Below, piece by piece: positions 163-18,961 of a stretch of DNA of 24,000 nucleotides (its first letter is position 1; the number at the start of each line of letters is the position of its first letter). The notes beneath the pieces were generated by a model. That model was not told the DNA's origin, made no database searches, and saw only the letters and a program-made list of their open reading frames with translations. A program made the position numbers and the translations under genes. Location of the stretch: the NCBI RefSeq assembly GCF_013760955.1, contig NZ_JACDUL010000002.1, positions 108,719 to 132,718 of the forward strand, given 5' to 3'. This DNA comes from Methanococcus maripaludis. Lineage in GTDB: Archaea; AGJL01; Methanococci; Methanococcales; Methanococcaceae.

Positions 163-163
163 C

Positions 164-3100
164 ATGGCAAGAGCAAAACAACAACGAAAGCTACAAAATC
201 ACCTGCTATTGAACCGCTACATCAGCTCATTGTTCGGATTCAAAAAACTAGACGACTTTAGGCGAAAACTAGACGATATTCCGGAAGGAATAAACCAAAA
301 CGGTAAGTTTTACTTTACTGAAGTTTTACAGAATTTGAACATTAATGATGAACTAAGGCAAAAATTGGAACAATACGATGAAAATATTCAGGAGTACTTG
401 AACAAGATAAATGAAAAAAGAGAAACTCCAATCTTGTTGAAATATTACCAATATCTGGCAGTATTATTTACGGAATTGTACCTGGATAAGTATTACAACG
501 AATTTGATGTATTTTATGATGAATTAATCAATTATGCAGAACATATGCGGGAAGTGGAAAGGGATAAAAACGTTCCTTATCCAAAAGAAAATGGGTTAAA
601 TAAATTAGTTTATTGGGCTGCAACGGGTAGCGGTAAAACGATAATCATGCATATCAATTATTTGCAGATAATGCGGTACAATAAAACATCGTATGATAAT
701 ATACTGCTGATAACACCTAGTGAAAGCCTAACTGCGCAACATATGGCCGAATTAAGCATAAGTAATATTCGAAACCGATGTTTTAATTTCCAGCTGAATT
801 TAGATAATTTTGGAGTTCAGAACCCAATAATTGTAATCGATAACTACAAACTAAAACAGGATGTGAAAACTCAAGATGGTAAATCCGTACCTGTTGAATT
901 TTTCGGTGAGAATAATATTGTATTCGTTGATGAAGGTCACAAGGGTAGCGGGGGAAAAGAGTGGAAATCAAACCGGGAATCGCTTGTTGGTAAACACGGT
1001 TTCATTTTTGAATACAGTGCAACTTTTGGCGAATTAGCGGCTGATGATGACTTGTTTGAGGAATATGCAACATCTATAATTTTTGATTACCGATACAAGT
1101 ACTTTTATGAGGACGGTTTTGGAAAAGACTACAGTATACTGAATTTGAGGAATAAAAACGATTATGACAACGATGAATACCTCGTAGGCGCATTATTGTC
1201 ATTGTACGAACAGAAAAAATACATGAATGACAATTCAAGAGGGATTCGAAAATTCAAACTGGAAAATCCGCTCATGATATTTGTTGGAAGTAGTGTTAGT
1301 GGCAAAAAAACCGAGTCAGATGTATTGAATGTGGTTAAATTCATTGCAAAATTTGTAAATGAAGAAAACTCAATGAAAAAATGTATAAAAAACATATTTA
1401 CTAACAAATCATCTATTGTCGATGAACATGATCAGCCGATCTTTAACCGAAAATTCTCCTATTTACGGGAGCTTATACGAAACAACCAGTTAAATATCGA
1501 TGAAATATATGATAACGTCATATCTGATCTTTTTTACGTTAAATCATCAAAAATTCTGGAATTTGTAGATATAAAGAAAGCAGAAGGGGAAATAGGTCTT
1601 CGGTTTGGACACGATGCCGATTACTTTGGTGTGATAAATATTGGGGACACTGCATCGTTTATTAAGCTCGCCGAATCCGAAAATGAAAATGAATACTTCA
1701 AAACCGATATAAAATCCAATCTCGAAAAAACACTATTTGGAAAAATCGAAAATAAAAATTCCAAAATAAATTTCCTAATTGGCTCCAAGAAATTTATCGA
1801 AGGTTGGAACTCATACCGTGTATCCTCAATGTGTTTACTAAATATTGGTAAAAAAGAAGGGGCACAAATTATCCAGCTATTTGGTAGGGGGGTGCGTCTT
1901 AGAGGTTATGAAAACTCACTTAAACGTAGCCAATACCTAAAGGATCACAAAAGGTTAGATGATTCGATAATAGTGCCTGAAAAATTGGAAATACTCGAAA
2001 CATTGAACATATTTGGAATGAACGCAAATTACATGGAGGTATTCCGTGAAACTTTGAAAGGAGAGGGCATTTCAGAATACGAAACGTTCAAACTCAAAAT
2101 AAAACCAACATTACCGGGTTTTAATCTATATATTCCTAGAAAAAGTAAAGATGCAGGCGAATTCAAAGATGAAGTCCAAATAACAACATATAATAATTTC
2201 AAATCTACCGTGGGTCTTGATTTGAGATCAAAAATTGAACGGCTTGATTCAAAAGACAAAATAGCCGAAACACATGGCGATTCAACAATAAAAGAACTAC
2301 TGTTTACTGATGAAATCGTTTCTATGATGGATTTTGATAGAGTTTACCTTGAAATAATGAAATATAAGGGTTTAAAGAAATATAGTAATATGTATTTTAC
2401 AAAAAAAGACTTAATTGAGCTCATAAATAAAAAAGCCTACTATATTAGATGTAAGGAAGAAATACTCGAAATAACAAAAGATCATAATCTCGGAAAACTT
2501 CAAAAATTAGAAGATTATGCAATTCAACTTCTAAAATCAATGGTGGATAAAATATATGGTCAAGAAAAACAACGGTGGTATCAAAAGAACCTCAGTTATG
2601 AGGTCCTCGATGAACAAGATCACCGTATGATCCCTGAAGACTATATATTCACTATAAATTGTACAGAACGCGATCTAAAATGGGATATGAATGAATTCAC
2701 GGATACATTAATAAAATATGTCCGCAAAAACGCTTCATCCGACGACGATGTAATATATTCTGAAAATAGCTCGTTTGGATATGACGAAGCTACCATTTTG
2801 GAATTTTTTGCAAACGAAACGCATCTATTCCAACCGCTAATTTACAAAAACGAAGATGAACGTCTGAAATTTATCAAACTATCGCCCACAGCGCTTGTTG
2901 AAAGTGAAAGGAAATTTTTGAATTATCTGACCGAGTATATTGAACGAAATAAGGATAATTTACCATTTGATCGCGCATATCTTCTTAGAAATCCATCGAG
3001 GACAGGAATTGGATTCTTTGAAACAAAGGGATTTTATCCTGATTTCATACTATGGACTATCAATGGAAATAAACAAAGCATTGCGTTTATAGATCCAAAA

Positions 3101-3352
3101 GGACTTATGCTGATGAATCAGGATGATGAAAAATTAAGGCTTTATGAAGACATTAAGCAAATACAAGATAGTATTAATAAACGTGGGGATATCCAACTAA
3201 ATTTAGATGCCTTTATAACCTCGGTTACAAATTACAGGGATCTAAAAACCCAATGGGATGCGACCAAAGATGAATTGGAAAATAAAAACATATTATTCTT
3301 AGAAGACGGCCACGAATGTATACGCAAAATGTTCAATAAACTGTATGCGTAA
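164..3352 (+). CDS. SF2 (DEAD/DEAH-like) helicase fused to a C-terminal PD-(D/E)xK nuclease; Type III restriction Res-like
   Basis: Long ORF. The likely start is ATG 164 (MARAKQQ), directly after the upstream stop, not the track start at 113. Walker A is AATGSGKT (about nt 617-640) and motif II is VDEGH (about nt 927-941). The C-terminal nuclease motif is YPDF...FIDPKG (D at 3041-3043, DPK at 3092-3100). Size and helicase-then-nuclease order match Type III Res subunits. Confidence 0.7.
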   Translation: MARAKQQRKLQNHLLLNRYISSLFGFKKLDDFRRKLDDIPEGINQNGKFYFTEVLQNLNINDELRQKLEQYDENIQEYLNKINEKRETPILLKYYQYLAVLFTELYLDKYYNEFDVFYDELINYAEHMREVERDKNVPYPKENGLNKLVYWAATGSGKTIIMHINYLQIMRYNKTSYDNILLITPSESLTAQHMAELSISNIRNRCFNFQLNLDNFGVQNPIIVIDNYKLKQDVKTQDGKSVPVEFFGENNIVFVDEGHKGSGGKEWKSNRESLVGKHGFIFEYSATFGELAADDDLFEEYATSIIFDYRYKYFYEDGFGKDYSILNLRNKNDYDNDEYLVGALLSLYEQKKYMNDNSRGIRKFKLENPLMIFVGSSVSGKKTESDVLNVVKFIAKFVNEENSMKKCIKNIFTNKSSIVDEHDQPIFNRKFSYLRELIRNNQLNIDEIYDNVISDLFYVKSSKILEFVDIKKAEGEIGLRFGHDADYFGVINIGDTASFIKLAESENENEYFKTDIKSNLEKTLFGKIENKNSKINFLIGSKKFIEGWNSYRVSSMCLLNIGKKEGAQIIQLFGRGVRLRGYENSLKRSQYLKDHKRLDDSIIVPEKLEILETLNIFGMNANYMEVFRETLKGEGISEYETFKLKIKPTLPGFNLYIPRKSKDAGEFKDEVQITTYNNFKSTVGLDLRSKIERLDSKDKIAETHGDSTIKELLFTDEIVSMMDFDRVYLEIMKYKGLKKYSNMYFTKKDLIELINKKAYYIRCKEEILEITKDHNLGKLQKLEDYAIQLLKSMVDKIYGQEKQRWYQKNLSYEVLDEQDHRMIPEDYIFTINCTERDLKWDMNEFTDTLIKYVRKNASSDDDVIYSENSSFGYDEATILEFFANETHLFQPLIYKNEDERLKFIKLSPTALVESERKFLNYLTEYIERNKDNLPFDRAYLLRNPSRTGIGFFETKGFYPDFILWTINGNKQSIAFIDPKGLMLMNQDDEKLRLYEDIKQIQDSINKRGDIQLNLDAFITSVTNYRDLKTQWDATKDELENKNILFLEDGHECIRKMFNKLYA

Positions 3353-3390
3353 CTTTTCCTAACTTTTTTTATTTATTATCTTTTTTTAAC
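3353..3390 (+). terminator. Oligo-T archaeal-type terminator after the helicase-nuclease gene
   Basis: Two T7 runs (3364-3370 and 3381-3387) lie immediately after the stop codon. Confidence 0.4.
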
Positions 3391-3497
3391 CTCCGTATCG
3401 CAATTCTTTCTAACATTTAATCCATATATTCTAACACATCGATGAAGTATATATACCATCCAGAATGCGGTTCAATTACAAACGAAAGGAGGTGAGG

Positions 3498-3698
3498 ATG
3501 ATGGTAAATTTTTGTTATAATAACAGTCAGACGTTGGAACATGAGGTCAGACACCGAATAGATTATAAATTGAACAAAGCATTCGAGGAAAAAGAATATG
3601 GTTTTATATTGCATATACTGTCTCAGCTTGAACTACACGAACATAAAATGGAATGTACAAACAAACCTAAAGAAGTTATGTTCAATCAAGAAGAATAA
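3498..3698 (+). CDS. Small hypothetical protein (about 66 aa)
   Basis: A strong SD (aggaggtgagg, 3487-3497) sits directly before the tandem ATG ATG at 3498/3501. No family was recognised. Confidence 0.45.
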   Translation: MMVNFCYNNSQTLEHEVRHRIDYKLNKAFEEKEYGFILHILSQLELHEHKMECTNKPKEVMFNQEE

Positions 3699-3708
3699 AT
3701 AAAATGTG

Positions 3709-4131
3709 TTATTTACCGTTTCGAATGGTGTTAAAGTCTTTTTCGTTTAACGGAACCATCGCACGTCGCAATGAACCTGACCACTGTTTTTTATTTTTTA
3801 TAAACTCCAACTTTTCTACAAGCGGTTTGAACAGAATCGGCGATTCAAACACTTCTATTTCCTTTAATTTAACTCTCAAAGGGTACGTTTCATTTGGATT
3901 GCGAGGATGTGCTCCAAATATCTTTTTTCCATCACGATTAACGTCTGAAGTGACTTCATAAAGTCCACGAATGTATTGTGGTTTGGGTTCTTTTCCGGTT
4001 ATACCCATTTCGTAAATCAGCAACATATCGCCTTTTTCAACTTTCGCAATCGTGTTTTTGTACATTTCAGAAACGCCCCAGACTTTTTTGTCTTTTACAA
4101 CGTTCCAGTTTTCTTCGTTTGTGATACACAT
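3709..4131 (-). CDS. EVE / PUA-like domain protein (archaeal PH1033-type)
   Basis: The protein from the internal Met reads [20 protein letters not shown]...GDMLLIY...[10 protein letters not shown]...YPLRVKLK...[18 protein letters not shown]. This matches my recollection of the stand-alone archaeal EVE/PUA-like family (WICIT.ENW..., VWGV, YEVTS, YPYRVK, FIKNKK.WS). The first 24 codons of the track ORF are probably not translated. Confidence 0.7.
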
Positions 4132-4252
4132 GAAGTAATTTGTCAGAATAACCACCACCGATATAATATAATCAATTATTCTGTTACTATTGTAACTTAA
4201 CATTTTCGAAATTATTGCAACATGACTCTAAATGGTAGGGAAAATGTTCACA

Positions 4253-4506
4253 AACCACCATAGATTCAAAATCATACGAATACGCTAAGTAGCGACAGTT
4301 TCAATTTTATGAGCTTTTCAGTACTCGTCGATCGTGTAGTTTCGAATGTTTGATATTCAGTTCAGAATTACATCGGCAAGAAGGCAGTATTATTCAGTAA
4401 CCTGGTTAACGTTCAACAATTTAACATATTGGTGTAAACAGCCAGTCGATAAGATCACTGAACCACCATAGATTCAAAATCTTACACGAACGTACCGTAG
4501 CGACAG
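4253..4506 (+). repeat. Composite repeat locus L, with a period of about 208 bp
   Basis: The core aaccaccatagattcaaaatc...gtagcgacag occurs at 4253-4298 and 4461-4506. Between the cores lie tttcgaatgtttgatat (4340-4356) and attacatcggcaagaaggcagtattattcagtaa (4367-4400). Copy 2 has an extra 9-bp stem, ccgtagcga (4495-4503) pairing with tcgctacgg (4526-4534). Confidence 0.85.
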
Positions 4507-4579
4507 GAACACATATGCGAGAGTTTCGCTACGGGCGTTTCAGGTATTTTAGATATGGTGAAATAAGTTCCTAATCGTC

Positions 4580-6613
4580 TTAGATATCAAACACTGACTT
4601 CGAATTAAATAAATTTTTCAAGGGGTTATCCACTTTGATTGATAATGTGTATAACGCACACGCATCCTTAAAATCTCGCTCATTAACTTCAGTATCTAAC
4701 CTGGCTTTCGCAAATGCGGTTGAAAGCCTAATTATTGTTTCAACCAGACGCGTTGATGTATTTTGATTAGCTCTTCTGTTAACGTAATATTCAACAATCG
4801 AATCTTCAACCGATTTAGGAACTTTAACGGACAGTGTCCTTGTGTATTCAATGAAATCCAGTAAAAATTCTCGATTAACCGTATAATCTCCAATATCTAT
4901 GGTTTTATCCAATAAGCTATCGGGATTGACTGATCCGAGGTTATGGTTTCTAATCGTTTTTCGAGCAATTTCAGCATCAAGTTCCTTGTTTTGACCAATA
5001 CCCATGTCAAATATCAAGTCAAATCGATCTATAACTGGTTTAGTTAGCTCAATCTGTTCAATTAATCCTTTTGTATTGTCCCAACACCCATTTCGAGGGT
5101 TACATGCAGCAAGAATTGCAATTTCCGCAGGTAGGCATATGTTTAATCCTGCTTTTGAAATGTGGATTTCTTGAGATTCCATCGCCTCTAAAAGATGTGT
5201 TGACATCTCTTTATTTACCGTTAATTCATCAAGTGATGCAGTTCCACCGTTTTTACAGACGAGTAATCCCGGTTTAGTTACCCAGCCACTATCACCAACT
5301 GAAGTTCTTTCTTGTTCCACAGCTGCCGTTAATCCAACACCCGAGCTTCCTGTAATCGATCCGTATATGTTTTTTGGAAGTTTTGACACGGTACGAAGCA
5401 TTTCAGATTTACCTACTCCCGGATCTGCAACTAACAGGATATGTAAGTTATTACGGTTTAATCCAACGGCGCCTTTCAGCTGTTGAAGTAGCAGCGCTTT
5501 TTTTACGTCTTCGTGACTATGGATTGTCGGGATCAGTATTTCAGAGAGCTTATCGAGTAACTTGATATCGTTTTTGGAACAGTACTCAACAACCTGTTTT
5601 ATGTACGTTATTTTGTTTTCGTCCAATCTATCGACTATAATATCTTCGACAGCCGCAATACTTTTAGCGTAAATGTAAATATCGTAGATAAGTCCGTTTT
5701 TCTGTTTTCTCTTGAACGGGATTCCGATAACATTTAGTTTACCGCTAAAGAGTCCCGGTGAATTCTCAAAGAACACGGTAATGTATTTTGGAGGTTCCTG
5801 TGGGTTATCCATTGTTTCTAACGGTTGCTGTAACTTAATTTCCTGAATATCGATATAATCAGATTCCAATTCGTTCAACATCATTTCTTTTCCACATTTA
5901 CACCACACCTTTGAAATGTCCTCAAACATGTTGTCAAGTGTTTCTTCCCGATTATTGCCGCAACCACATGTGTAAGCACCTTTTTTTAGCATTACCTTTT
6001 TAGATGACGCAATTGATATGATACCTTCAAATTCTACGACTTTTCCGATTTTAGCAGAGTTTATGTCTTCGATATCACATTTGTATTTATCAGGTAGGTT
6101 CTGAATAACGATTCCATCACAATCGGGTTTTTCATTCTTCAATAACCTGTAAGCTTCAGTATACGCTTCCGAAAACATTTTGAAGACGTCATTGGGACTG
6201 CTATCGAGTTTATTCAGCAGAAATTTATCGGTACCAAACTCCTCTTGAAAGTCAACGATAACCGTTTTACCGCTTTCAATCTTTCTTTTGTGTTTATCCA
6301 GCAGGTATTTTACAATGTCAGATAATTCAGTTTCCGATTTATGTAAATAACCAGATTTATCTTCGTAAAGTATGTCGGCATCCATTAATTGGTTTATGTA
6401 TTTGCTATATGTGGACCGATGTAGTCCTGCACTGAGTAAGATCCCCTTTAGATCTTCAACGGCAATATTCACGTTGGAATGGGTATTGAATATGTAAAGG
6501 ATCGTGTCTCGAGCAGTAGGCTTTTCACCGTTATTTGTTTCTTTATACGATTTAACTGATTTTATAATCTGTTCTTGCAGTGTTTCTGTTAGTGCTATTT
6601 TTTCGTTGACCAT
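4580..6613 (-). CDS. mcm: MCM family replicative helicase with an N-terminal wHTH-like region
   Basis: Walker A is ADPGVGKSEML and Walker B is ASLDELT. Sensor/arginine-finger-like motifs are AILAACNP and IDRFDLIF. A Cys4 zinc motif reads CGCG...CKCG. The track start is a TTG; the ATG at 6613 (MVNEKIAL), preceded by gaagagg, is more likely. Confidence 0.85.
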   Translation of the reverse strand: MVNEKIALTETLQEQIIKSVKSYKETNNGEKPTARDTILYIFNTHSNVNIAVEDLKGILLSAGLHRSTYSKYINQLMDADILYEDKSGYLHKSETELSDIVKYLLDKHKRKIESGKTVIVDFQEEFGTDKFLLNKLDSSPNDVFKMFSEAYTEAYRLLKNEKPDCDGIVIQNLPDKYKCDIEDINSAKIGKVVEFEGIISIASSKKVMLKKGAYTCGCGNNREETLDNMFEDISKVWCKCGKEMMLNELESDYIDIQEIKLQQPLETMDNPQEPPKYITVFFENSPGLFSGKLNVIGIPFKRKQKNGLIYDIYIYAKSIAAVEDIIVDRLDENKITYIKQVVEYCSKNDIKLLDKLSEILIPTIHSHEDVKKALLLQQLKGAVGLNRNNLHILLVADPGVGKSEMLRTVSKLPKNIYGSITGSSGVGLTAAVEQERTSVGDSGWVTKPGLLVCKNGGTASLDELTVNKEMSTHLLEAMESQEIHISKAGLNICLPAEIAILAACNPRNGCWDNTKGLIEQIELTKPVIDRFDLIFDMGIGQNKELDAEIARKTIRNHNLGSVNPDSLLDKTIDIGDYTVNREFLLDFIEYTRTLSVKVPKSVEDSIVEYYVNRRANQNTSTRLVETIIRLSTAFAKARLDTEVNERDFKDACALYTLSIKVDNPLKNLFNSKSVFDI

Positions 6614-7673
6614 TTCATGCCTCTTCAACTGATTGGTAGTGTATTTGCAGTGTTTATTCTCAAAATACCACTGATGAAGATACTATATAAATACAACTAA
6701 CCAAAACGTTAGAAAAATTTGGCAGGGTGAATCAAAAACGAAAGTCATCGAAAGTAAAACAAGCGAGTATCACAGTCTAATGAACTAACAAAGTGATATA
6801 CCGCGTTACTCCTGAGCAGTAACACAAGAGTAACAATGATACAATGATGGTAACACAAAATAGACAGTATGAAAAAAGTAATTCGCAATCCAAAAAGAAG
6901 CCTGTAGCAACGTTACCTGACATAATAAGTGATAATAGAATAATTAGTATATGTATATATGTAAATGTTATAGTGGTTCTTAGGATATATACTTACCGGT
7001 TTTCGGTACCTAACGTTCCGGATAGATAAACATCGGATCTACAACAACGATAACTCTATTTTAGTAATTTTGAGTAAGCTGTATCGAGAAATTTACTGAT
7101 ATAGTGAGCTTTGGAAATTAAAGAAACGTGTTCACTCTAGAAATTTATGAAACACGATTTCGCGGGCTTTGACGAGTACCAAACTCACGCTGCTTCTCAA
7201 TCACATAATATATGATAGCGTAGGCTATAGGCGAAGTATTCACGTAGCGCTTCTGATTTAGAGATATAGCGAATACCAAACCGTACAAAATCAAACAACT
7301 AAAAGTGGTGATCTATGTGGATATTCAAACGCGTTTAACCCGATAATAATGAAAACATGTCAGCTGCGAGTATTTACGATACTCTAGGATTCTACATGAC
7401 GATTCCAAGAATGTGTGATCGAAATTCACGTTTTCAGCTGATTTCTCTCTACGTATTCCAAAACGCAGCGTTAATAGATGATATACTAGTGAATAACCAA
7501 TATCGAGGTGATATAATGACACGTTGAACAATATACCCTACTAATGAGCGTATATGTGGTAAATATCGATGTAAACCACACTATAACTCTAAACATACAC
7601 GATGACGCACATTAGTGAGTCAGAACTGATGAAATAACAAAATTTGATAAAACAAACAAAAAATGGTGAAACT

Positions 7674-8066
7674 ATGAAAACAACTGAATTAACTATACCG
7701 TCACTTGCGGCAACCGCATTATCACACAAAGGCTTATGCGGAAGGGGATACACAAAAATTAGAAACCAGATAGATTCCGAGTACTGGGAGATTGGTTCTA
7801 AACTTCTCGAGGAATGGGAATCAAACACGTCATTAAACATGTATTCGGTAACTGCTGAATTGTACCACGCTAAAGAGTTTAACTTTAAGGGTAAACACTA
7901 TGGTATAAACGTTATTGGAAACGGTAAGGTAAGAAAAATGTGTATGGACATTGCAGCGGTAGAAATGGATCTTAATCGGAAAATGGATAAAAAATACGAA
8001 TCGATGTTGAATGATATTATATGTAAATTACAGAAGTACGATTTCGAAACTCAAGAGATGTGTTAA
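7674..8066 (+). CDS. Hypothetical protein (130 aa)
   Basis: The ORF has an SD (tggtgaaact) before ATG 7674 (MKTTELT) and a TAA stop. No family was recognised. Confidence 0.5.
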   Translation: MKTTELTIPSLAATALSHKGLCGRGYTKIRNQIDSEYWEIGSKLLEEWESNTSLNMYSVTAELYHAKEFNFKGKHYGINVIGNGKVRKMCMDIAAVEMDLNRKMDKKYESMLNDIICKLQKYDFETQEMC

Positions 8067-8114
8067 CCAAGTAATTTGTGTATCAACACATTACTTTGGA
8101 TCCATCCGATCTGA

Positions 8115-8360
8115 TTACATCGTCAAGAAGGCGATGTATTATTCAGTAAATATATACAATGTTCATTAAGCGAATTTAGAAACGTAAACAGCCGGTCGAT
8201 ACGATTAACAAACCACCATAGATTCAAAATCTTACACGAGCGTACCGTAGCGACAGCTTCAGGTTCATCAGCTTCCTAGTATGTGTTGAACATGAGTTGG
8301 TTTCGATGTTTGACATCACATTATAATTACATCGTCAACATGGCGATGTATTGTCTGACA
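8115..8360 (+). repeat. Composite repeat locus R; same modules as locus L, in direct orientation, with a period of about 211 bp
   Basis: The hairpin module attacatcgtcaagaaggcgatgtattattcagtaa lies at 8115-8149 and recurs at 8326-8360. The 73-bp core at 8184-8256 is about 90% identical by eye to 4434-4506. tttcgatgtttgacatcac lies at 8301-8319. Confidence 0.85.
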
Positions 8361-8636
8361 CGAGTTTAACGATTTATACGAAACTCAATAATGTATGCTG
8401 AAATGTACAAGATTACGAAACTGTGTTCTAAACGTTGGGACGAAACAATCAATGAACCATCATGGATTAAAATGTTGGTATCAACGCTTCATAACAACTG
8501 TTTTAGAAATGCGAGCTTTCCCGTACATAACGTTCAGCGCCATGAACCACACAGACAATACGCGACAAATTCTCTCGATATCATAATTTATATGATGTAG
8601 TTCATAATCGGTATGTAATAAGAAGAGAGTGGTTAA

Positions 8637-9398
8637 ATGAAGATATTTTATTTTACAGGTACTGGTAACAGCCTGTACGTGGCTAAACGAATTGGTGGAG
8701 AACTTTATTCGATACCACAGGTGTTAAAAGACGGTAATCTCGAATTCGAAGATGAAACAATCGGTATCGTTTTTCCATGTTATGCTTTTGGTGTTCCACG
8801 ACTTGTTGCTGAATTCATCAAACGTGTAACGTTAAACGCTAATTACGTTTTTGCTGTAATGACGTACGGTAATATGAGTGGATCGGGACTAAAACAGCTC
8901 GAAGATCTCGGAAAACAGTCAGGTATCACATTTAACTATACTAACGAAATCTGTATGGTTGATAACTATCTGCCGCTTTATTCAGTTGAAGAACAGTTGA
9001 AACACGAAAATAAGAAGCTTATCGAAGCCCACGTAGAAAATATCGTTAATGATATACGCAATCAGAAAACGAAATGCAAACGAAAAGGAATAGTGATGGA
9101 CACCGTTTCCAAGTTAGTTTACCGATTCGTTTATGAAAATAAGCTCGATATGGCAGACAAGAAATTCATCGTTAACGAAAACTGCAACGCTTGTAAATTG
9201 TGTGAGAAGTTATGTCCTAAAAATAACATTTCAGTAACGGATAAACCGGAATTTTTACATCGCTGTGATATCTGTTATTCGTGTATCCACAACTGTCCGC
9301 AAAACGCGATTCACTTGAAAAACGAAAAAAGTAGTATGCGATTTATCAATCAACATGTAACCGTAAACGAGATAATCGATTCAAACGATCAAAGTTAA
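8637..9398 (+). CDS. EFR1-type protein: flavodoxin-like N-terminal domain fused to a 2x[4Fe-4S] ferredoxin domain
   Basis: The N-terminus is MKIFYFTGTGNS, a flavodoxin-like loop. Two CxxCxxCxxxCP motifs are present (CNACKLCEKLCP and CDICYSCIHNCP). An SD-like gagtggt precedes the ATG. Confidence 0.7.
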   Translation: MKIFYFTGTGNSLYVAKRIGGELYSIPQVLKDGNLEFEDETIGIVFPCYAFGVPRLVAEFIKRVTLNANYVFAVMTYGNMSGSGLKQLEDLGKQSGITFNYTNEICMVDNYLPLYSVEEQLKHENKKLIEAHVENIVNDIRNQKTKCKRKGIVMDTVSKLVYRFVYENKLDMADKKFIVNENCNACKLCEKLCPKNNISVTDKPEFLHRCDICYSCIHNCPQNAIHLKNEKSSMRFINQHVTVNEIIDSNDQS

Positions 9399-9406
9399 TG
9401 TTATAA

Positions 9407-10453
9407 CTATTCGGATTCTGTATTCTCGCTAGATAACTTTTCCATATACTTCTCACGAATCTTTGATAGTGTTTCACCAGTTTCCTTAAGCACTGCGAAG
9501 TTGTATGTCTGGATACTCGACCATCCGTAGACACTCTTTAGCCATGTTTGCATTGACATCTCGGTAGCGACAGCTGTTTGCATTGGTATTTTACGAACAT
9601 CAGCTGATCCAATTGACATTTCAGTAGGGATAACCGATACATTTCCGTTTTTCAACAGAATTGCTTCAGCGTTATGATCTTTCGCTTTTATCACGTCACC
9701 AGGTTTTACAACGCCCCATTCAAGCATGTCACTAATTTTAGGTAACGAACGTCGTGTGATGTCTTTAGTTTTCTTTGATACGTATTTTGCTTTATCCATC
9801 AGGTTAACGTAGTAATCTTCGTATCCTGAAACCGGTAGAATCTTTTCAGCGTTTATATAACATTCATTGTTGATTTTGTACGGTGTTAACTGAAAACAGT
9901 TCATATCAACGTTATTCTTGTTCAACCACGCTACCGCTGACAGTGTTTGTTCGTCGTATTCACCTGCAGCGAGAATGATTCTCTGTTTCTCGTTAAATTT
10001 GGTAACATCGTTCGCATCTAAAAATTCGTTAAGTTTACGAATTCCTAATTCATATGATGTGAGCTCACCGATTTCGTATTCATTGCGGTATTTCTCGATG
10101 TATGGTGCGTAGACCAGTTTAACTAACTCATCGGGACTTTCGACTTTCGCATAACTTGCAGCGTATCGAATTGCCTGAAACTCGAACGCTTCTTTACGGT
10201 TTTCGATGTCTTTCTTATCTCGCTTAATCTCGATTAACACAATGTTTCCGTTGTTGTCGACTGCTGTAAGATCACTTCGACCGTTTTTCTCGTTTTTAAC
10301 CTGTCGTCCAACAATCAACAGTGATTCTTCATCATCACACAGCATATCGATACTGCATCTCAAGATCTCTTCAATATCGTTTTCGTTCATCCCAAGTTGC
10401 GAAAACGTGGTAGCTTCGACTTTCGCTGCCTTTTTGTTAGTGATACTGTACAT
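9407..10453 (-). CDS. NucS/DUF91-like PD-(D/E)xK nuclease with an uncharacterised C-terminal domain
   Basis: The nuclease core reads GRSDLTAVDNNGNIVLIEIKRD...FQAIRYAASY (D...ExK plus Q..RY). The likely start is ATG 10453 (MYSITNKK), with ggggtg about 9 nt upstream. The C-terminal ~110 aa (...QTWLKSVYGWSSIQTYNFAVLKETGETLSKIRE) is unassigned. Confidence 0.6.
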   Translation of the reverse strand: MYSITNKKAAKVEATTFSQLGMNENDIEEILRCSIDMLCDDEESLLIVGRQVKNEKNGRSDLTAVDNNGNIVLIEIKRDKKDIENRKEAFEFQAIRYAASYAKVESPDELVKLVYAPYIEKYRNEYEIGELTSYELGIRKLNEFLDANDVTKFNEKQRIILAAGEYDEQTLSAVAWLNKNNVDMNCFQLTPYKINNECYINAEKILPVSGYEDYYVNLMDKAKYVSKKTKDITRRSLPKISDMLEWGVVKPGDVIKAKDHNAEAILLKNGNVSVIPTEMSIGSADVRKIPMQTAVATEMSMQTWLKSVYGWSSIQTYNFAVLKETGETLSKIREKYMEKLSSENTESE

Positions 10454-10761
10454 AATTACTGCACCCCGATCCCCGATAACCATTACGGTCGTTAAAATGA
10501 TTTGTAACTGTACAGTACTATTCGAATGGTTGTTATTTATGCGTTGTTAATTAACACAACTGATTATTGTGAAATGATTATACCGCATTCGTTAGCATTG
10601 CTACCGCAACCTGAAACGTGTTTACAATATCAAAAAAAAATTTATACTCCTGAGCAATTTGACGTCGTAGTGTTACGATACGTCACAAGTGAGAATTTAT
10701 TTTTCCTCCTCAACTATGACTCGTCGTAGTACCAAAGTGTTATATGTTGTCTCGTTGCGTT

Positions 10762-11293
10762 GCCCACTCGTTGTTCGTGTTACTCACAACTCGTTGCACT
10801 CGCATTGGGCGCTCCGCGCTATAATTATATATAATACGTAAAAAAAATATACTCCAATCTTATACGCTAATCGTATAAAACTGGTAGCTTACGTCTGGTT
10901 ATGTATTCGGTAAAGTGTTAACCAGTATTTTTACTCACCGTACGATATCACTTAATTCCCGGCTTTACTAACTCAGTACGTTGTCTTGTACCTTTACTCT
11001 ACACTTCAGAGTTTGTTAGTTTACGAATCGACAGTTCGAAACGACCGTAACCTCAAGCATGTCTACCGTTATCCAGTTATGCGGGTGTACTCTGATTGAA
11101 CCATTTAAACTCATCGGGTCCGCTTGTGTTCACGTAATCACCGACTTGAGGTGATTATCACTGAGGGTATACAGAGGGATGTTCAGACCTACACACATAT
11201 ACCATTGTACTACGTTAGTTTGTACAATGAGAGTTAATTTCCGTTTAGTTAAGTGAACAGAGTACCGTATTCTCTTGTCCCGCAAGTCCTTCT
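10762..11293 (+). ncRNA. Candidate structured RNA, paralog A. Strand is tentative and the family is not recognised.
   Basis: The unit aligns along its whole length with 12330-12825. It has no conserved ORF. Four hairpins are maintained by compensatory changes. A TATA-like box lies upstream. Confidence 0.4.
10811..10836 (+). promoter_or_regulatory. Conserved GC block plus TATA-like element upstream of unit A
   Basis: gctccgcgctataattatatataata. The block gggcgctccgcgctataattat is identical in unit B. Confidence 0.35.
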
Positions 11294-11513
11294 ACGTTTT
11301 GTTGTACTTTGTAATCTTATATGGGGAAGTCGTAGTGAGTATATATACTTTATCGAAGTATGTACATGAATTGATTGTCATCGTCACGATGTAATCCCAG
11401 CGTAGTTTGCAGAGCTAAAGCGTTATTATCGTAATTGTATGGCGAATTAACCAACTAATCATCTCAACACGTTTTTACATCCCTGTAGCTTACGGTTTAT
11501 CTGTATTGGTTAG

Positions 11514-12080
11514 CGTTCGTTATTCACAGTAGTTCATAACTCACTTTTAGCAGGGTATACTCAAGCTGATTAATTCACATTAACTTTTGAGATCACTAAC
11601 TGTAATTTTGCGTAATGCTAATGCTCGTTGTTCTATGCTATCGCAACTCGCATTTACCGAACGTACTGCTGATTCAACTGCTACGTACTATTTCCAGAGA
11701 GCATTTCATGTGATGGTACGGTAGTGATAGTTATTTGGTAATGTATGCTGTATTTCACTCACGTTTCAGCTTTCAGTACATTTACGGCAATTCTCGGCAT
11801 ATCATCGTTCGTTATTCACAGTAGTTCATAACTCACTTTTACCGAAAAATACTCAAGAGTTAATTACCTCGTGCTGATAACGCCGTTTAAATATTGTTGA
11901 TGTATTTGTGTGTTATTTCACGTTAAAAAACACATTAAATCTCGTAATGGTTTACAAAGCGGTTATGTTCGAGTATGTTATGGTTTAACCGTAATCAGCA
12001 GATATATCATGTATTTCACTTACCGTATTTTCTCTGATATCGTCGCTCGTTGTTCTCTGCTATCACAACTCACTTTTACC
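11514..12080 (+). repeat. Four dispersed copies of a 36-bp module (U1-U4)
   Basis: U1 (11514-11549) and U3 (11806-11841) are identical: cgttcgttattcacagtagttcataactcactttta. U2 (11623-11658) and U4 (12045-12080) differ at 4 of 36 positions: gctcgttgttct(a/c)tgctatc(g/a)caactc(g/a)c(a/t)tttacc. The two types are about 70% similar by eye. A related motif lies at the heads of units A and B. Confidence 0.85.
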
Positions 12081-12329
12081 CGGGATACCACACAGTTTAG
12101 TAACTACTGAGACGTTATTTGATTGTAACCGTATTGCATGACCTACAGTTATCTCGAAGTGGATTACCAATGTACCGTACCAGTCAAGCCTTCGGCTAAC
12201 CGATTCGTTAACGTGGTGAAAAGAGTATTCGTAAACATTACCTTAACACAGTGAGTTATGTTCAAAGTCGCGTTCGCTGTACGCTGTACGCTTTACGCTT
12301 TTTGAACTAACTCATCTACTCACTGCTTC

Positions 12330-12825
12330 GCCCACTCGGTGTTCGTCAACTCACACCTCATTACACTCGTATTGGGCGCTCCGCGCTATAATTATTATAT
12401 ATTACATATCAGTTGTTTATAGTCTAATCTTATGTACATTTTACATAAAATGACTTGCTTACGTCCGGTTAGTTAATCTGATAAGTGTTAACCGGTATTT
12501 TGTTCATCTGTATGATATCACCCAATTCCCGGCGTTATTAACACAACATTACACTTACATGTGTGTTAACTTACGAAATGAATCTGACCAAATCGACCAT
12601 AACCTTGAGCACGTTTACCATTTTTCAGTTATGGTTACATGACTCCTGATTGAACCATTTAAACTCTCATGTCCGCTTTTAACTTCACCAACCTACTGTC
12701 GGTGAGGGTATCTGAGGGATGTTCAGGCAGTACGTTATAACCACCATTGCACTTTTGTAGCGCAATGTGAACGTTTAATCCAATTTAATGGAATTTCATA
12801 TGTTCTCGTGTCCCGCACGTTCTTC
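12330..12825 (+). ncRNA. Candidate structured RNA, paralog B
   Basis: See paralog A. The same conserved blocks are present, including a perfect 21-mer ctgattgaaccatttaaactc (12646-12666, matching 11092-11112). Confidence 0.4.
12377..12405 (+). promoter_or_regulatory. Conserved GC block plus TATA-like element upstream of unit B
   Basis: gctccgcgctataattattatatattac. Confidence 0.35.
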
Positions 12826-13455
12826 CATATGTTAGTAGTAACTCTATCACAATCGTTGATACCATATATATGTTATTATTGTAATCGATTTAAACGCGTT
12901 TGATCTGATTTTTGAGTATTGTGATTGTATGATTTGGAAATACTGCAGTAATGAATATGTAAAAAACGTATCAGCGTTACATACACGGCTTATCAGATTT
13001 TTGTACCTTCCATAGGTTGACGCTCACGGTCAATCCATACTGTAATCGGTGATATGCAGTCGATAGGTAGGTGATGATTAACATAACCAGTGTTTGGTGA
13101 ATATACAAAAAAGTATCGCACCCTTTTTTACAAAAAACCGTTCAAAAGTATTACACAAAATGTGAACACATTACCACTTTGTGAGCGTGACTCACATCGT
13201 ACGTTCTGTATAGACCTGCAGCTTTTTTGTGAAATCTGTTAACTCGACACCCGCGTGTTAATTTTGGTCCGATTGCTCGGACCACTTGCCATTTAGGGTA
13301 AGTCGTATAAAAAAGTTAAAGCTAGCTAATAACTATGTATGATCATGACAATATATAAGTTTTTCGGTAATTGGCGGATATTCAGTGCTACATTTTATAT
13401 ACTAACCACTTGTACACTTGTGTATTGGTTACACGGTGCTATGTACGTACCGTTA

Positions 13456-13552
13456 ACACAGTGCCACTTGTATATGGTTCTACATGATATACATTGCTAC
13501 ATATGGCTGTAAAACACTTTGACACAGTGCCACTTGTATATGGTTCTACATG
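13456..13552 (+). repeat. Perfect 31-bp direct repeat with a 66-bp period
   Basis: acacagtgccacttgtatatggttctacatg occurs at 13456-13486 and 13522-13552. It contains the CACTTGTAT motif. Confidence 0.9.
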
Positions 13553-13636
13553 TTTTAGGTATTTTACAAAAAAGGTTCTTCTATCGATACTGGTGTTTTT
13601 ACGGGTTATCTCCACGTTACTAAGATCGATATACAG

Positions 13637-13683
13637 AATACTGGAAAAACGTAATGTTTGAAAAAAGAGTCATACCCTTTTTT
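13637..13683. repeat. 47-bp repeat ending in an A6...T6 terminator-like element (copy 1)
   Basis: aatactggaaaaacgtaatgtttgaaaaaagagtcataccctttttt. It is near-identical to 14258-14304. Shorter relatives lie at 13107-13129 and 14339-14353. Confidence 0.8.
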
Positions 13684-14257
13684 CACAAAACTGTAAAAAT
13701 ATCGTTAGTTTATGGGCTTCACTCACAGAGTATATCCCGCATATACTATAATCGTTTTTTGAGTTCGTGAAAACAGTTACATAACAATTTCTGTGGTTTG
13801 TAACCTGTCCATGTCAGAAACATGGACAAATTAAACCACTGGTGACGATTTAAACGAGTTTCCGTTGAAGCGGATAACGTAAAAATGATGAACTTACAAT
13901 GATATTCCCCCTACGAAGAAATCAAATCATCTTAGCCAACTCACGATAAACGCTGAAGTTACTAAATGTTTTGAAATTCGTCGATATCATTTAACGTAAC
14001 GCACAGCATCACCATTACCCGAGATTGCCCCCACTTAATGCAATCTCTTGGGCTTTAACATATATGGTGTTGCTACTATATAATTTCGATTATCGGATAA
14101 TTTTGTACTACAATTTACAAAATAATCGTGTATTTGTACATGTGTCGGATAATATTATATACTCGGTTTCCTTTTTCGAGTAGCGACTTGAAACATGTAG
14201 ATCGGTAAAACATTTCTGTACACGTTATCCTTCGGTTAACCTGGTCGATGTTACGTA

Positions 14258-14304
14258 AATACTGAAAAAACGTAATGTCTGAAAAAAGAGTCATACCCTT
14301 TTTT
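14258..14304. repeat. 47-bp repeat ending in an A6...T6 terminator-like element (copy 2)
   Basis: aatactgaaaaaacgtaatgtctgaaaaaagagtcataccctttttt. Confidence 0.8.
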
Positions 14305-14439
14305 GAATATTGTTCGTTGAACTTGGTGTGACAAAATTGGTCATACCCTTTTTCACGTGATGTGATCTAGTTTTGATATTATTATCGTATAGCGCTTAGT
14401 CACAGTTATCAGCGTTTCAAAAAAGCATTACCGTTATTA

Positions 14440-14736
14440 TTACTGCGGCATTTCAAATGGAAGTGGTGTACCTGTTTCTTCAATATACTGTTTTACCACG
14501 TGTTCTGCGACAGTGTCCCAGTCAATGAAGTCTACGATGTAGGATAACACCACAGGTCGTAGTGATCCGAGTTCTGTCATCGGGTGATGTATAAGTTCTG
14601 ATTTCAGAAGAACGATTAATTCAACGTATGATTTGCAGCAGTTAATTCGTTCGGTCCAGTTACCGTTGGTGTATACGTAAGTTTCCATCGCGGATATAAT
14701 CCTGTTTGTTAGTTCTGTTGAAATTGTAGGGTTCAT
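14440..14736 (-). CDS. Hypothetical protein (98 aa)
   Basis: The ORF has the SD aaggtgatatt directly before its ATG and a TAA stop. No family was recognised. Confidence 0.5.
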   Translation of the reverse strand: MNPTISTELTNRIISAMETYVYTNGNWTERINCCKSYVELIVLLKSELIHHPMTELGSLRPVVLSYIVDFIDWDTVAEHVVKQYIEETGTPLPFEMPQ

Positions 14737-14866
14737 AATATCACCTTGTGTTGGATTGGATTATTTTATCGTAATTACCGTGAGATAGTACGAGTACATA
14801 AAATCGTAGGTTCTAGAGTTTAGGGTATTACGATCGGAACTTTTGTAGTTTGCTAAATGGTATATA

Positions 14867-14965
14867 CGCTCACTACCGTAGCGTTCATATTTCTGAAACT
14901 CTTGTACTGAAACGCTCACAAACAATTCGTATTAGTTGGCTGTTCACGTGTTTGATACATAGGGT
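14867..14965 (+). repeat. ~100-bp unit C1
   Basis: C1 shares cgctcactaccgtagcgttcat, acgctcaca and gtgtttgatacataggg with C2. The anchor motifs accgtagcg and tgtttgatacat also occur in loci L and R. Confidence 0.7.
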
Positions 14966-15203
14966 AGAAAAGAGTTAGTTGGTAGAAAAATGAAAAACGT
15001 CGATACTTGGTGGGGTATGTACTCTGACTGAGTTATACATTAATTATTGGACAAGTGAAGTCGTTATTCATGTTTACACTTGTGCACGGGTATCATTTAC
15101 ATTAGTTGTAGGTTATAATCGTTGGCACGTCACCGATGTAAATCGAGGTAAGCGGTTCTGAATAAAATAGTAGTAATTCAAACATGATGATTACCCTTCA
15201 AAG

Positions 15204-15299
15204 CCACTCACCGTAGCGATCATCAAATTGTACAGTTCACAATGAGACGCTCATCACTGATTCATAGCTTTACCCAGTTCTTGTGTTTGATACATAGGG
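15204..15299 (+). repeat. ~100-bp unit C2
   Basis: ccactcaccgtagcgatcat ... acgctcatca ... gtgtttgatacataggg. Confidence 0.7.
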
Positions 15300-15363
15300 C
15301 GAAAGCATCGTACTTACTTGATTTCGCCATAATTACTTTCATCATGTAATGCGGATATGTTCG

Positions 15364-15573
15364 CACTTGTATACTCACTACACCTATACAAGTGTTCCAG
15401 TGGCCACATAGAAACGTTAACACAGTTTAACATGTCTATGGGTTTCACTTGTATGCCCACCGCACTTATCCACTTGTATACTCATTACAAGTGCACATGT
15501 GGTTCCATTATACACTTGTTACTGTGCATAGGTATTCCACGTGTACACTTACCCACATAGAAACGTTAACACA
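15364..15573. repeat. CACTTGTA(T) repeat and inverted-repeat field
   Basis: One inverted repeat is cacttgtata (15364-15373) pairing with tatacaagtg (15385-15394). A second is cacttgta (15471-15478) pairing with tacaagtg (15486-15493). The palindrome cacatgtg lies at 15494-15501. The 21-bp direct repeat ccacatagaaacgttaacaca occurs at 15404-15424 and 15553-15573. Confidence 0.85.
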
Positions 15574-15821
15574 TGCCACAGTGTATGCGTATATCACTTA
15601 TATTGCGATTAAAGTCTCACGGTATTCATTCCTGCGTTTACTCACTTATGGTACCACAGTACTCGTTTACCGTGTCTTCATTACCTGTATCCGCTTAATA
15701 CGCCTTAGACTGTGGGTACCATCACTTATGCTACTGTTTTTAGCATCTATCACTTATATCGGACCGTTTAATGTTGAATCGATAAAAAAAGCGCAGAACA
15801 TTATATAATCGTGATTCAGGA

Positions 15822-15867
15822 GTGTAGGGTCGTGTAACTGTGGTGTAAATTGGTGTAGGGGGGTGTA
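15822..15867 (+). promoter_or_regulatory. Five helically phased GTGTA iterons
   Basis: gtgta starts at 15822, 15832, 15843, 15853 and 15863, giving spacings of 10, 11, 10 and 10 bp. A GGGG-tgta-CCCC hairpin and the hairpin cgcgg-ttttt-ccgcg (about 15884-15898) follow. Confidence 0.6.
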
Positions 15868-16012
15868 CCCCTGCAAAAAATGTCGCGGTTTTTCCGCGCT
15901 TAATTACTCTATAGTGTAATATGGAGTGTTTTCCCGAAAATTTACAATTTTTCGAAAACTTCGGTTAATTAACATAAACGTCTGATTAATCGATAAAAAA
16001 GAGTAAGTGGTG

Positions 16013-16243
16013 TTATAAATTATGTGATGCGTGTTTACTTAAGTTTTCAACAGTTATTCGTGTAGTGTTAAACGCGATAGCTACAAAGTCCTCAACAGTC
16101 GTATGTTCTCTCAAGAGGTCGTTTTCGAGTAACTTTGGTAGGTTACTTTGTGTAATCATTTCGAATGCAGTTTCTAACGATAATCCAGGTAGTTCCTTAA
16201 CCATCGTTTCCGCAACATCGGTGATTATGTATTTGTATTTCAT
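16013..16243 (-). CDS. Small protein (76 aa), possibly the DUF3791-like partner of the upstream DUF3990-like gene
   Basis: The ORF has the SD ggtgatat before its ATG and a TAA stop. It lies immediately downstream of the DUF3990-like gene, the usual pairing. Resemblance to DUF3791 is weak and judged from memory only. Confidence 0.45.
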   Translation of the reverse strand: MKYKYIITDVAETMVKELPGLSLETAFEMITQSNLPKLLENDLLREHTTVEDFVAIAFNTTRITVENLSKHASHNL

Positions 16244-16305
16244 GATATCACCAAAAGGTTATAGCTTAAATTTTGGAGTTTTGTATTTCGTATATCCATC
16301 GTACC

Positions 16306-16824
16306 TCAAAGCCATAATACTTCTTTCGGTTTTGAACACGATCTGTTCATATGGGTACGCTTCAACATTGTTGATAAGGTTTTGTATTTCCTTATATCAT
16401 TTTCACTGAGTTTACCTGTAGCTATTAATCGACGTAATCTACTTGTACCTTCACTAATTCCTCTATCAATCACATAACCTTGTATAATATCGTAATGTTC
16501 TTCATCTAGTTTGTGTGGCCTTCCGATTCTACAGTAAACCGCATATTCGATTGCTTCGTGTTCCTTTAAGTGTCGGTATTTTAGTTCGCCTAACACTTCA
16601 TGGTTTATCAAATAATGTACAACTGCAGGTGGTCCGATAGAGTCTCTACCCATTTGCCGATTTAACTCGAACTTAATGTTTCCTCATTCGATAGCTTTTT
16701 CGAGGATATCTGTTGTGTAAAACCCTCGACCGAAATCTAATGCTGTTTTATCCTGTATCGTCGTTCCAAATCGTTCGATCGATACAGCATGTTTTTTACA
16801 GGTTCCGTGATGTAGGTTCTTCAT
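16306..16824 (-). pseudogene. DUF3990-like gene interrupted by a single in-frame TGA
   Basis: The minus-strand reading is MKNLHHGTCKKHAVSIERFGTTIQDKTALDFGRGFYTTDILEKAIE-TGA-GNIKFELNRQMGRDS..., continuing in the same frame into the track ORF 16306-16653. The TGA lies at 16684-16686. HHG and DFGxGFYxT are the DUF3990 signature. The stop falls where the family usually has Trp (..A..W.). Confidence 0.6.
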
Positions 16825-17239
16825 GTGTTTCATAAGTTACATCTCTATAATACCTCGGAATCCGCAATATATAAATAATTCGGTTTATTTTTCAAATTTA
16901 ACGTGTTATGGTATACGGGTAGAGAAATATCGCGATATAACTGTGATATGGGGTGACTTGGTAAGATATAACATATTACATAATTTTCCAGATGTTACGG
17001 TAAGTCACGCTCACGCGGTTCCAAATCTGGATCTGATATTTATAATTTTCCGAAAAGTTTATAAATGGGTCTTTAATGTGTTTGAAAAAAGTCACGTTTT
17101 GTCACGGTGCTTTGTGTTACATTACCAAGGTTAACAGGGTAGCTACAACGTCCTCAAAACGGCAATGTCTTAGGTGCATCACATTTTGCAGACTACGATA
17201 AGTGATTCCATTAATGACATACACCAGTGTAAAATGGTA

Positions 17240-17325
17240 ATGTATACACATTTTCACAGTTCTATGGTGACATGTATACAAGTTTTCACAGTTCTATGGT
17301 GACATGTATACAAGTTTTTATGTGG
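17240..17325 (+). repeat. 32-bp tandem repeat, about 2.7 copies
   Basis: atgtatacacattttcacagttctatggtgac lies at 17240-17271. atgtatacaagttttcacagttctatggtgac lies at 17272-17303. A partial copy lies at 17304-17325. Confidence 0.9.
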
Positions 17326-17644
17326 CTAATTGTATCATGTACCTAAATGAACATTGTACAACTTGGTATGGTTATCAGGAATGCGCCATGTATCAATCTC
17401 ATTAACATTTGGGGTAATTGTATCGTAAAACGTCCTGCGCGGTTTCGTAAAACTTGGAATGTGGTAGTCCTGCGCAATATGTCACGAAAAAAGAAATACA
17501 GTATGCGCAATATCTGTGTAAGTGTTAATCAGCTAATCCGCGCGCGTCCGAATATATAATCAATGACACGTTAATGATAACTGTGAGTTAAAATCGCTAA
17601 AATCGTTTTAATCATGCGAAATCGTCGTTAAAAAAGTCCGTCGA

Positions 17645-17687
17645 GATTTCAAGTCCGGCGCCTTTGGCCAAGCTCAACCACCTCTGC
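17645..17687 (-). tRNA. Truncated tRNA-Ser(UGA): the 5' half only, through the anticodon loop
   Basis: The minus strand reads GCAGAGG-TG-GTT-GAGCTTGGCCAAA-GGC-G-CCGGA-CTTGAAA-TC. This has archaeal class II tRNA-Ser layout, with a long D loop containing GG and the anticodon TGA. After TC the expected 3' anticodon-stem strand TCCGG is replaced by TCTCGACGGAC followed by T6. No variable arm or T arm is present. Confidence 0.6.
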
Positions 17688-17711
17688 TCGCACTTGTACT
17701 TAAGCGATTCA

Positions 17712-17724
17712 GCTATATATACTT
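17712..17724 (-). promoter_or_regulatory. TATA box for the tRNA-Ser fragment
   Basis: The minus strand reads aaagtatatatag and ends about 25 nt upstream of tRNA position 1. This is canonical archaeal spacing. Confidence 0.5.
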
Positions 17725-17828
17725 TTCTATTTTTCTTTACAATACTAGCAATAATTTTTATTTAAAGAACGTAACTAGCCATAAAAATTAATATTTAGGT
17801 TTAATTTTGAAATTTAAAAATTAAAGTA

Positions 17829-18050
17829 TTATAATTCAATTTCGCTTAAAATGCCTTTCAAAGCTTTTAATTCTTCTGCAGTTAATGTAATTCCCTTTCT
17901 CATTCTTTCATGTTCGGGGTTCCAGTCTCTTATATCATATTTTGGTTCTTTTTCGTTCCAGCTTACAAGGTTAAGTTCTTTTTTCCAGCCGTTTGGGTAT
18001 TCATAAAGTACGCCTATATGTTCGACTATTTCAAATGTAATTTCTGCCAT
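17829..18050 (-). CDS. YdbC / PC4-like ssDNA-binding family protein
   Basis: MAEITFEIVEHIGVLYEYPNGWKKELNLVSWNEKEPKYDIRDWNPEHERMRKGITLTAEE matches my recollection of the YdbC pattern (GW.KELNLVSWN...PKYD.RDW.P.H..M.KGITL). Confidence 0.7.
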   Translation of the reverse strand: MAEITFEIVEHIGVLYEYPNGWKKELNLVSWNEKEPKYDIRDWNPEHERMRKGITLTAEELKALKGILSEIEL

Positions 18051-18779: not shown

Positions 18780-18961
18780 GAGAATCCCTATCTGTGATGT
18801 ATTTAATTACTTTTAATTACATTTTTACTAAAAAGTTAATTAATAGTTATTACATAAACAGTATATATAATTAATGCATTCAAGATCTCAAAGATGATAT
18901 GGAACAACAGATTCCAATAGATGTCCAATTTCAAAAGAATGGTGAAACAATCTTTTTTAGT

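Follow-up and report, generated by a model that had tools for sequence, protein, structure and literature searches.

A Promoter-Bearing 5' Half of tRNA-Ser(UGA) in Methanococcus as the Probable Host-Side att Site Left by a 25.3-kb Integrative Element

Introduction

Fragments of tRNA genes left behind as scars of attachment (att) sites are textbook knowledge. The locus described here raises the question of how a tRNA gene can end up as a 5' half that still carries its promoter and breaks off just behind the anticodon loop, and of what such a half gene delimits. It lies in the window, a stretch of 24,000 nucleotides (G000:C2:108719-132718) from a Methanococcus genome of 1.76 Mb and 33% GC, denoted G000; Methanococcus maripaludis, the species of the closest named relatives, is genetically tractable. 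In the original prediction, made from the sequence of the window, the half gene was taken for the scar of tRNA-targeted integration at an island/host junction, and the retention of the 5' half was called unusual. Rare it is, but an archaeal precedent exists in the pTN3/TKV4 type of the Thermococcales (PMC8371274, PMC5495485).

According to a review from 2021, targeting of the tRNA 5' half is confined, in archaea, to pTN3-like integrases, and in such a case the rebuilt tRNA is expressed from the integrase promoter (PMC8371274). In pTN3 the att site, 41 bp long, forms part of the integrase gene, and integration leaves the tRNA "separated from its original promoter" (PMC5495485). For the integrated plasmids of the Methanococcales, all described att sites overlap the tRNA 3' end (Badel et al. 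2019, PMC6972569). As far as the work of Williams (2002) is summarised in PMC8371274, nearly all bacterial islands and prophages with a crossover in the anticodon loop supply the 3' part of the gene, such that the original promoter is kept.

The truncated gene and its surroundings

The features of the locus are compiled in Table 1. On the minus strand, positions 17687-17645 read GCAGAGG...CTTGAAATC; the full tRNA part of the minus strand in window 17731-17645 is GCAGAGGTGGTTGAGCTTGGCCAAAGGCGCCGGACTTGAAATC, which follows a 44-bp upstream segment. The ARAGORN cloverleaf of these 43 nt places the acceptor 5' strand, the D arm, the 5' strand of the anticodon stem, the loop CTTGAAA (7 nt) and 2 nt of the 3' stem strand, much as had been proposed when the segment was read as the 5' part of a tRNA-Ser. 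Chance resemblance is ruled out, the segment being one copy of an 87-bp perfect repeat. When the window was scanned with ARAGORN, zero tRNA calls were obtained, at this site or elsewhere in it, and a permissive Rfam scan of window 17500-17850 gave no family match; the absence of calls is expected, since the half gene scores below threshold.

Table 1. Coordinates of the half gene, its flanks and the bracketed element, in window positions unless a locus (L001) or contig (C2) is named.
Feature	Location	Strand	Remarks
tRNA-Ser(UGA) 5' half, nt 1-43	17645..17687	-	43/43 identity to intact gene, G000:C2 101035..100993
Putative tRNA promoter segment, 44 bp, within direct repeat	17688..17731	-	identical to 44 bp upstream of intact tRNA
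Host-side copy of 87-bp perfect direct repeat (probable att junction)	17645..17731	-	whole-genome BLAST 87/87
First element bases past the crossover region, TCGACGGAC + T6	17630..17644	-	T6 = 17635-17630
Conserved terminal arm of the element, with GCGCA motif cluster	17433..17644	-	79% identity to matching G003 element end
Host flank, PC4-like gene (73 aa) upstream of tRNA promoter	17829..18050	-	Pfam PC4, E = 4.8e-13
Element portion within the window	1..17644	.	type III Res, EVE, MCM, Fe-S protein, PDC-S11-like protein, long ORF-poor tract
Tyrosine integrase P0001, 340 aa, uninterrupted	L001:5599-6621	-	Pfam Phage_integrase 5e-35 + SAM-like domain
UvrD helicase fused to PD-(D/E)XK nuclease	L001:6991-9831		GajB-like matches
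Type III restriction-modification Mod, 1022 aa	L001:9812-12880		
Type III restriction-modification Res, 1079 aa	113-3352		
EVE-domain protein	3709-4203		
MCM helicase	4580-6628		
Fe-S protein	8637-9398		
PDC-S11-like candidate defence protein	9407-10483		

Upstream of the half gene, GAAAAGTATATATAG (about 17726-17712) sits 25-39 nt ahead of the mature tRNA 5' end and comprises a TATA-like box, GTATATATA, at about 17722-17714, with a purine-rich stretch upstream of it. This box fits AAAGT(T/A)TATATA, the motif that precedes most other tRNA transcription units of the genome, so that the TATA box suggested at this position conforms to the genome's own tRNA box. From its sequence, promoter is a fair description of the 44-bp segment.

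At the other end, the half gene passes into element DNA via the junction sequence GAAATCTCGACGGAC, and the divergence into TCGACGGAC followed by T6 was found as described beforehand; the T6 run lies 11 nt past the crossover region. Archaeal RNA polymerase terminates at oligo-T, and T6 is likely to act as the stop for transcripts from the retained promoter, while the stretch of TCGACGGAC and T6 as a whole is likely the core-proximal arm of the element. The compositional change claimed for this point is likewise seen, with a GC content of about 0.37 to the left of the site against 0.24-0.27 to the right. Further to the right, beyond the PC4-like gene, an AT-rich stretch (window 18150-19950, 24-28% GC) is not syntenic with the tRNA locus in two related genomes, G001 and G002, and its pieces have their counterparts in these genomes at distances of 11 kb to 430 kb. 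The host flank beyond the PC4-like gene may itself be rearranged or foreign.

A direct repeat and the element it brackets

In the whole genome, ARAGORN finds a single intact tRNA-Ser(UGA), at G000:C2 c[100949,101035], on the same strand as the half copy, 25.3 kb apart from it and 7.7 kb to the left of the window; tRNA-SeC is encoded as well. The intact and the truncated gene share an 87-bp perfect direct repeat (C2 100993-101079, equal to L001:4993-5079, versus C2 126363-126449, equal to window 17645-17731), which consists of the 44 bp upstream of the gene and tRNA nt 1-43, and which extends to 91 bp at 98.9% with one mismatch. The second copy of the 43-nt segment looked for in the genome thus turned up within the only intact tRNA-Ser(UGA), and the direct repeat exists, but its extent is wider than the 17645-17687 first proposed and includes the promoter. 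The intact tRNA, the att partner and the integrase, which had been missing from the window, are located 7.7-6.1 kb to its left.

Between the repeats lies an island of 25.3 kb (G000:C2 101036-126362; left end at window -7683) that bears an integrase gene at its tRNA-proximal end. This integrase, P0001, is encoded in the same direction as the tRNA, with its stop codon about 520 bp from the repeat, and its catalytic residues R189, R290, H313 and Y322 are invariant in an alignment of 22 homologues. The element may still be mobile. Public contigs that carry the integrase break off inside the repeat and are uninformative on excision. From the last element gene to the junction extends an ORF-poor tract. 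In its gene content the island resembles a typical plasmid-like integrated element of archaea that carries defence genes. Much of the cargo is defence-related, namely the UvrD-nuclease, the type III Mod/Res pair and the PDC-S11-like protein.

Taken together with the relatives described below, the half tRNA is very probably the host-side attachment junction of this 25.3-kb integrative element at the only tRNA-Ser(UGA) of the host, made by a classical integrase. A quite different view would be that the half gene is functional in its own right, as a split-tRNA or tRNA-half RNA gene of the Nanoarchaeum type that works with a separate 3' half. The full promoter and the oligo-T run behind the half gene imply that it is probably transcribed, and stray 3'-half copies do occur at C2 101203-101261 and C6 22061-22116. 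Against this stand the intact tRNA-Ser(UGA) gene, the complement of the trailer TCTCGACGGAC, which occurs nowhere else in the genome such that there is no pairing leader, and the predicted transcript of the half gene, which folds no better than shuffled sequence (z = +1.0). The half gene is also absent from the relative G002. A split-tRNA gene was rejected on these grounds and is the least probable of the explanations weighed here.

The copy at C6:22061-22116 deserves a remark of its own. It comprises 56 nt, corresponds to tRNA-Ser(UGA) nt 32-87 with 100% identity, and resides on a separate contig of 24.7 kb whose ends repeat the ends of contigs C1 and C4. No integrase of the P0001 family is carried on this contig. 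Another 3'-type element, or its remnant, probably has its far att site here.

Empty and occupied sites in relatives

An island-free relative was available for comparison in G002, in which the PC4-like gene, the same promoter and an intact tRNA-Ser(UGA), rather than the truncated sequence, are contiguous and 91% identical to the right flank in G000. Judged by its sequence, this locus is the unoccupied site for the G000 element, and together with the repeats that bracket the integrase-bearing island it upholds the reading of the half gene as an integration scar. Among the integrase homologues, the one from G002 is labelled M. maripaludis C5; the homologues of P0001 in public sources are named Methanococcus maripaludis or M. 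vannielii.

A second occupied site is provided by G003 (M. vannielii SB-like), where a syntenic 27-kb element is flanked by an intact tRNA-Ser(UGA) (~303.5 kb) and a half copy (~330.6 kb). The integrase of this element shares 83% identity with P0001, and the EVE and MCM genes, the non-coding units and the terminal arms are homologous; the restriction-modification genes of the G000 element are not common to it. The G003 junction, GAAATC followed directly by TCGACGGACTTTTTT, matches that of G000 to the nucleotide, both genomes have the 17 nt TCTCGACGGACTTTTTT at this point, and T6 is kept. The terminal arm is conserved at 79% between the two although it is non-coding. Of the 40 species representatives compared across the order, G000 and G003 alone have the full junction, and a search for the exact junction pattern in metagenome and viral contig collections gave no match.

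Could the repeat stem from a segmental duplication or from homologous recombination of tRNA-linked sequences, with the nearby integrase being incidental? The site is recombinationally busy, as the rearranged or remnant versions of the locus in G001 and G003 suggest. In G001, about 55 bp of element-type sequence occur upstream of the promoter, and half copy and integrase are both absent from the tRNA locus; the 55-bp stretch is read as the scar of a decayed element copy. A duplication would nevertheless have to account for a nucleotide-exact junction in two species beside homologous integrases, and for an insertion that is clean relative to G002. It would also have to account for the arrangement in the integrase family, in which a tRNA gene or fragment lies just downstream of the integrase gene in 15 of 29 loci, that is, in all loci with one detected within 1.5 kb. 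Such an origin is therefore regarded as very improbable, and integration at the tRNA gene as the preferred explanation.

Several features of the relatives are worth recording in this context. The direct repeat in G003 is much longer than that in G000, comprising 426 bp at 99.5% identity (G003:C1 303509-303934 versus 330596-331021; L024, L025) and covering nearly all of the DNA between the anticodon loop and the stop codon of the integrase gene. Integration of a new copy beside the remnant of an earlier one, a scar like that in G001, is the simplest reading; homogenisation of the two copies is another, and in either case an extra step beyond the main model is needed. In G002, the 3' side of tRNA-Ser(UGA) is occupied by a tandem of two elements, one of about 36.5 kb and one of 17 kb (G002:C1 565945-619792; L016, L020, L058), each of which ends in a 3'-half copy; the 17-kb element carries MCM and a 67%-identical integrase. 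G001 carries an 18-kb element of the same 3'-half kind, and its intact tRNA is a mosaic, with a 5' half identical to that of G000 and a diverged 3' half.

Position of the crossover

On its downstream side, the repeat stops at tRNA nt 43, 2 nt past the anticodon loop, in G000 and G003 alike; the upstream edge differs, with repeats of 87 bp (91 bp with the mismatch) and 426 bp, respectively. In the classical elements of G001 and G002 at the same tRNA, the partial copies span the gene from the anticodon loop to the 3' end plus a few bases. The G002 partial copy starts exactly where the loop does, at nt 35, and lies 238 bp downstream of the integrase that is 67% identical to P0001. The identity blocks of the 5' type and of the 3' type overlap in CTTGAAATC only, from which strand exchange in the anticodon loop is inferred for both lineages. 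For SSV1 such an exchange has been documented, for other archaeal integrases it has been proposed, and tRNA-targeting tyrosine integrases characteristically exchange strands at the loop borders (PMC8371274). On the basis of these sequence comparisons, both lineages probably cross over in the loop, yet carry opposite halves of the gene.

It should be borne in mind that the two repeat copies of G000 are identical, so that sequence alone cannot assign the element-derived copy or the point of strand exchange. The same element could thus have exchanged strands at the promoter end of the repeat, in which case the tRNA was never split and the stranded copy is a decoy borne by the element. Any point inside the identical 87-bp block fits G000, and the 6 bp upstream of the element-side repeat (GGAATA) match the element-free G002 better than the host-side copy of G000. 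The upstream boundary, however, is the variable one (87/91 bp in G000 versus 426 bp in G003), whereas the boundary at the anticodon loop is identical in both species and abuts the boundary of the 3'-type repeat of the sister integrase; exchange at the loop border is, moreover, what characterises this class of integrases (PMC8371274). A crossover at the promoter end is accordingly considered unlikely, if somewhat less so than the duplication and split-tRNA alternatives, and the anticodon loop is preferred.

Proposed course of integration

In the free element, the order would be integrase gene, about 520 bp of intervening DNA, promoter, tRNA nt 1-43, TCGACGGAC-T6 and the far arm. The classical, non-split tyrosine integrase would recombine this site with the chromosomal tRNA gene, most likely in the 7-nt anticodon loop. 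As a result, the promoter and 5' half of the host would be stranded at the far end of the element (window 17645-17731), followed by the element DNA TCGACGGAC and T6, while the promoter and 5' half of the element would be fused to the 3' half of the host, such that the only functional tRNA-Ser(UGA) is rebuilt with an identical promoter. With tRNA-Ser(UGA) being single-copy, a working, transcribed gene has to be rebuilt, and it is the carried promoter by which the rebuilt tRNA would be transcribed. T6 would keep transcripts started at the stranded promoter from running on into the element. If this scheme is true, the only tRNA-Ser(UGA) of the host is transcribed from a promoter supplied by the element, and the stranded promoter drives a terminated RNA of about 60 nt.

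Polarity of the attachment site within the integrase lineage

A maximum-likelihood tree of 28 integrase homologues, midpoint-rooted, places the integrases of G000 and G003 as sisters (97/95) and the G002 integrase as sister to this pair (100/100). Wherever a tRNA gene or fragment was detected within 1.5 kb of an integrase of the family, it has its 3' end facing the integrase or is a 3' half downstream of it, with the distal repeat having been checked in a minority of the relatives. We lean, by a modest degree, towards a switch of halves within this classical, non-suicidal Methanococcus lineage, from the 3' half (the G002 sister) to promoter plus 5' half (G000, G003) at the same anticodon-loop crossover, with an inverted 3' relic as the abandoned ancestral attP. 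If this is true, targeting of the 5' half in archaea is not confined to pTN3-like integrases. Two related integrases that act on the same tRNA and the same loop and take opposite halves would make a compact system for the evolution of att-site polarity.

The relic itself is an inverted, degenerate 3' part of tRNA-Ser(UGA), nt 33-87, with 89% identity (L001:5203-5261; C2 101203-101261, plus strand), its loop mutated to CTTGATA. Convergent with the integrase gene, it occupies the stretch that separates this gene from the promoter copy, at the spot where many relatives have their tRNA, and the G003 element has the same relic. Based on this position and its sequence, it may be an abandoned ancestral attP of the 3' type. 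Attempts to derive the 5'-type site from the inverted relic via a single inversion or a wrong-orientation synapse were discarded, as no simple scheme gave the observed geometry.

Comparison with known systems

A close parallel is found in pTN3 and TKV4 of the Thermococcales, which employ SSV-type "suicidal" integrases. There, as in the G000 element, attB corresponds to the tRNA 5' half and spans about 41-43 bp, as far as the anticodon region; integration strands one 5' half, and the element supplies the 5' part of the rebuilt tRNA (PMC5495485, PMC8371274). In pTN3/TKV4, attP lies inside the integrase ORF, which is split into Int(N) and Int(C) upon integration, whereas the ORF in G000 is whole and about 520 bp away; the rebuilt tRNA of pTN3/TKV4 is cut off from its own promoter, whereas the G000 element duplicates an identical 44-bp promoter segment. 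P0001 belongs to the classical integrase family of the Methanococcales, unlike the pTN3-like integrases. As such, the G000 element would be a counter-example to the statement in PMC8371274, with an unsplit integrase and the promoter problem solved by carrying a promoter.

By host and integrase, the element is akin to the pT26-2 family (MMPV1, MMC6V1, MMC7V2 and others), which occurs in the same host order and prefers tRNA-Ser and tRNA-Leu as targets (PMC6972569). The type II integrases of that family are homologous to P0001 at 48-67% identity; MCM is shared as well, often as the replication protein, and G001 and G002 have att copies of the pT26-2 type, as 3' halves, at this very tRNA. The att sites of the family are at the tRNA 3' end, in contrast to the promoter and 5' half used in G000, in which the inverted 89% relic inside the element is the only 3' part. 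To bacterial tRNA islands the G000 element bears a resemblance in the anticodon stem-loop core, in the loop-bounded identity block that restores the gene and in the integrase adjoining att; it is nevertheless their mirror image, in that the 5' half with promoter is supplied and not the 3' part.

The exact boundaries are herewith fixed for a 25.3-kb island with defence genes and MCM, and its integrase and att partner are located. The combination of 5'-half targeting by a classical Methanococcales integrase, an unsplit integrase gene and a duplicated promoter may be new, while a prior description of the boundaries is possible. Krupovic et al. (2010, Mol Biol Evol) reportedly surveyed MCM-bearing elements of the Methanococcales, and the M. 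vannielii-like element may already be delimited there. Stranded 5' halves with live promoters are easily missed or misread in annotation.

Further sequence features of the element ends

The dyad symmetry of the attP core is no more than weak on the side of the element (CCGGA / TCTCG), which counts against the integration model. Tandem repeats of 32 bp lie deeper in the element, at about 17240-17325 (+326 to +385 from the core). The pentamer GCGCA has a density of 0.39 per kb on the contig, as compared to 5-6 copies per 500-bp stretch just inside each element end, where it is clustered at window 17382-17510 (C2 126100-126227) and at L001:5088-5258 (C2 101088-101258). The copies are mostly on the tRNA-sense strand, in the contexts TTGCGCA and CCGCGCA(GGAC); at the ends of the G003 element, GCGCA enrichment is absent. 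As a weak lead, the clusters are candidate arm-type binding sites. About 100 bp past the integrase stop codon, on the minus strand at L001:5492-5507, GCGCCGGACTTTTTTA resembles the att core minus the loop region, with the anticodon-stem sequence GCGCCGGACTT joined to CGGACTTTTTTA of the far arm. Going by this resemblance, GCGCCGGACTTTTTTA could be a terminator of the integrase gene, a secondary binding site or a coincidence.
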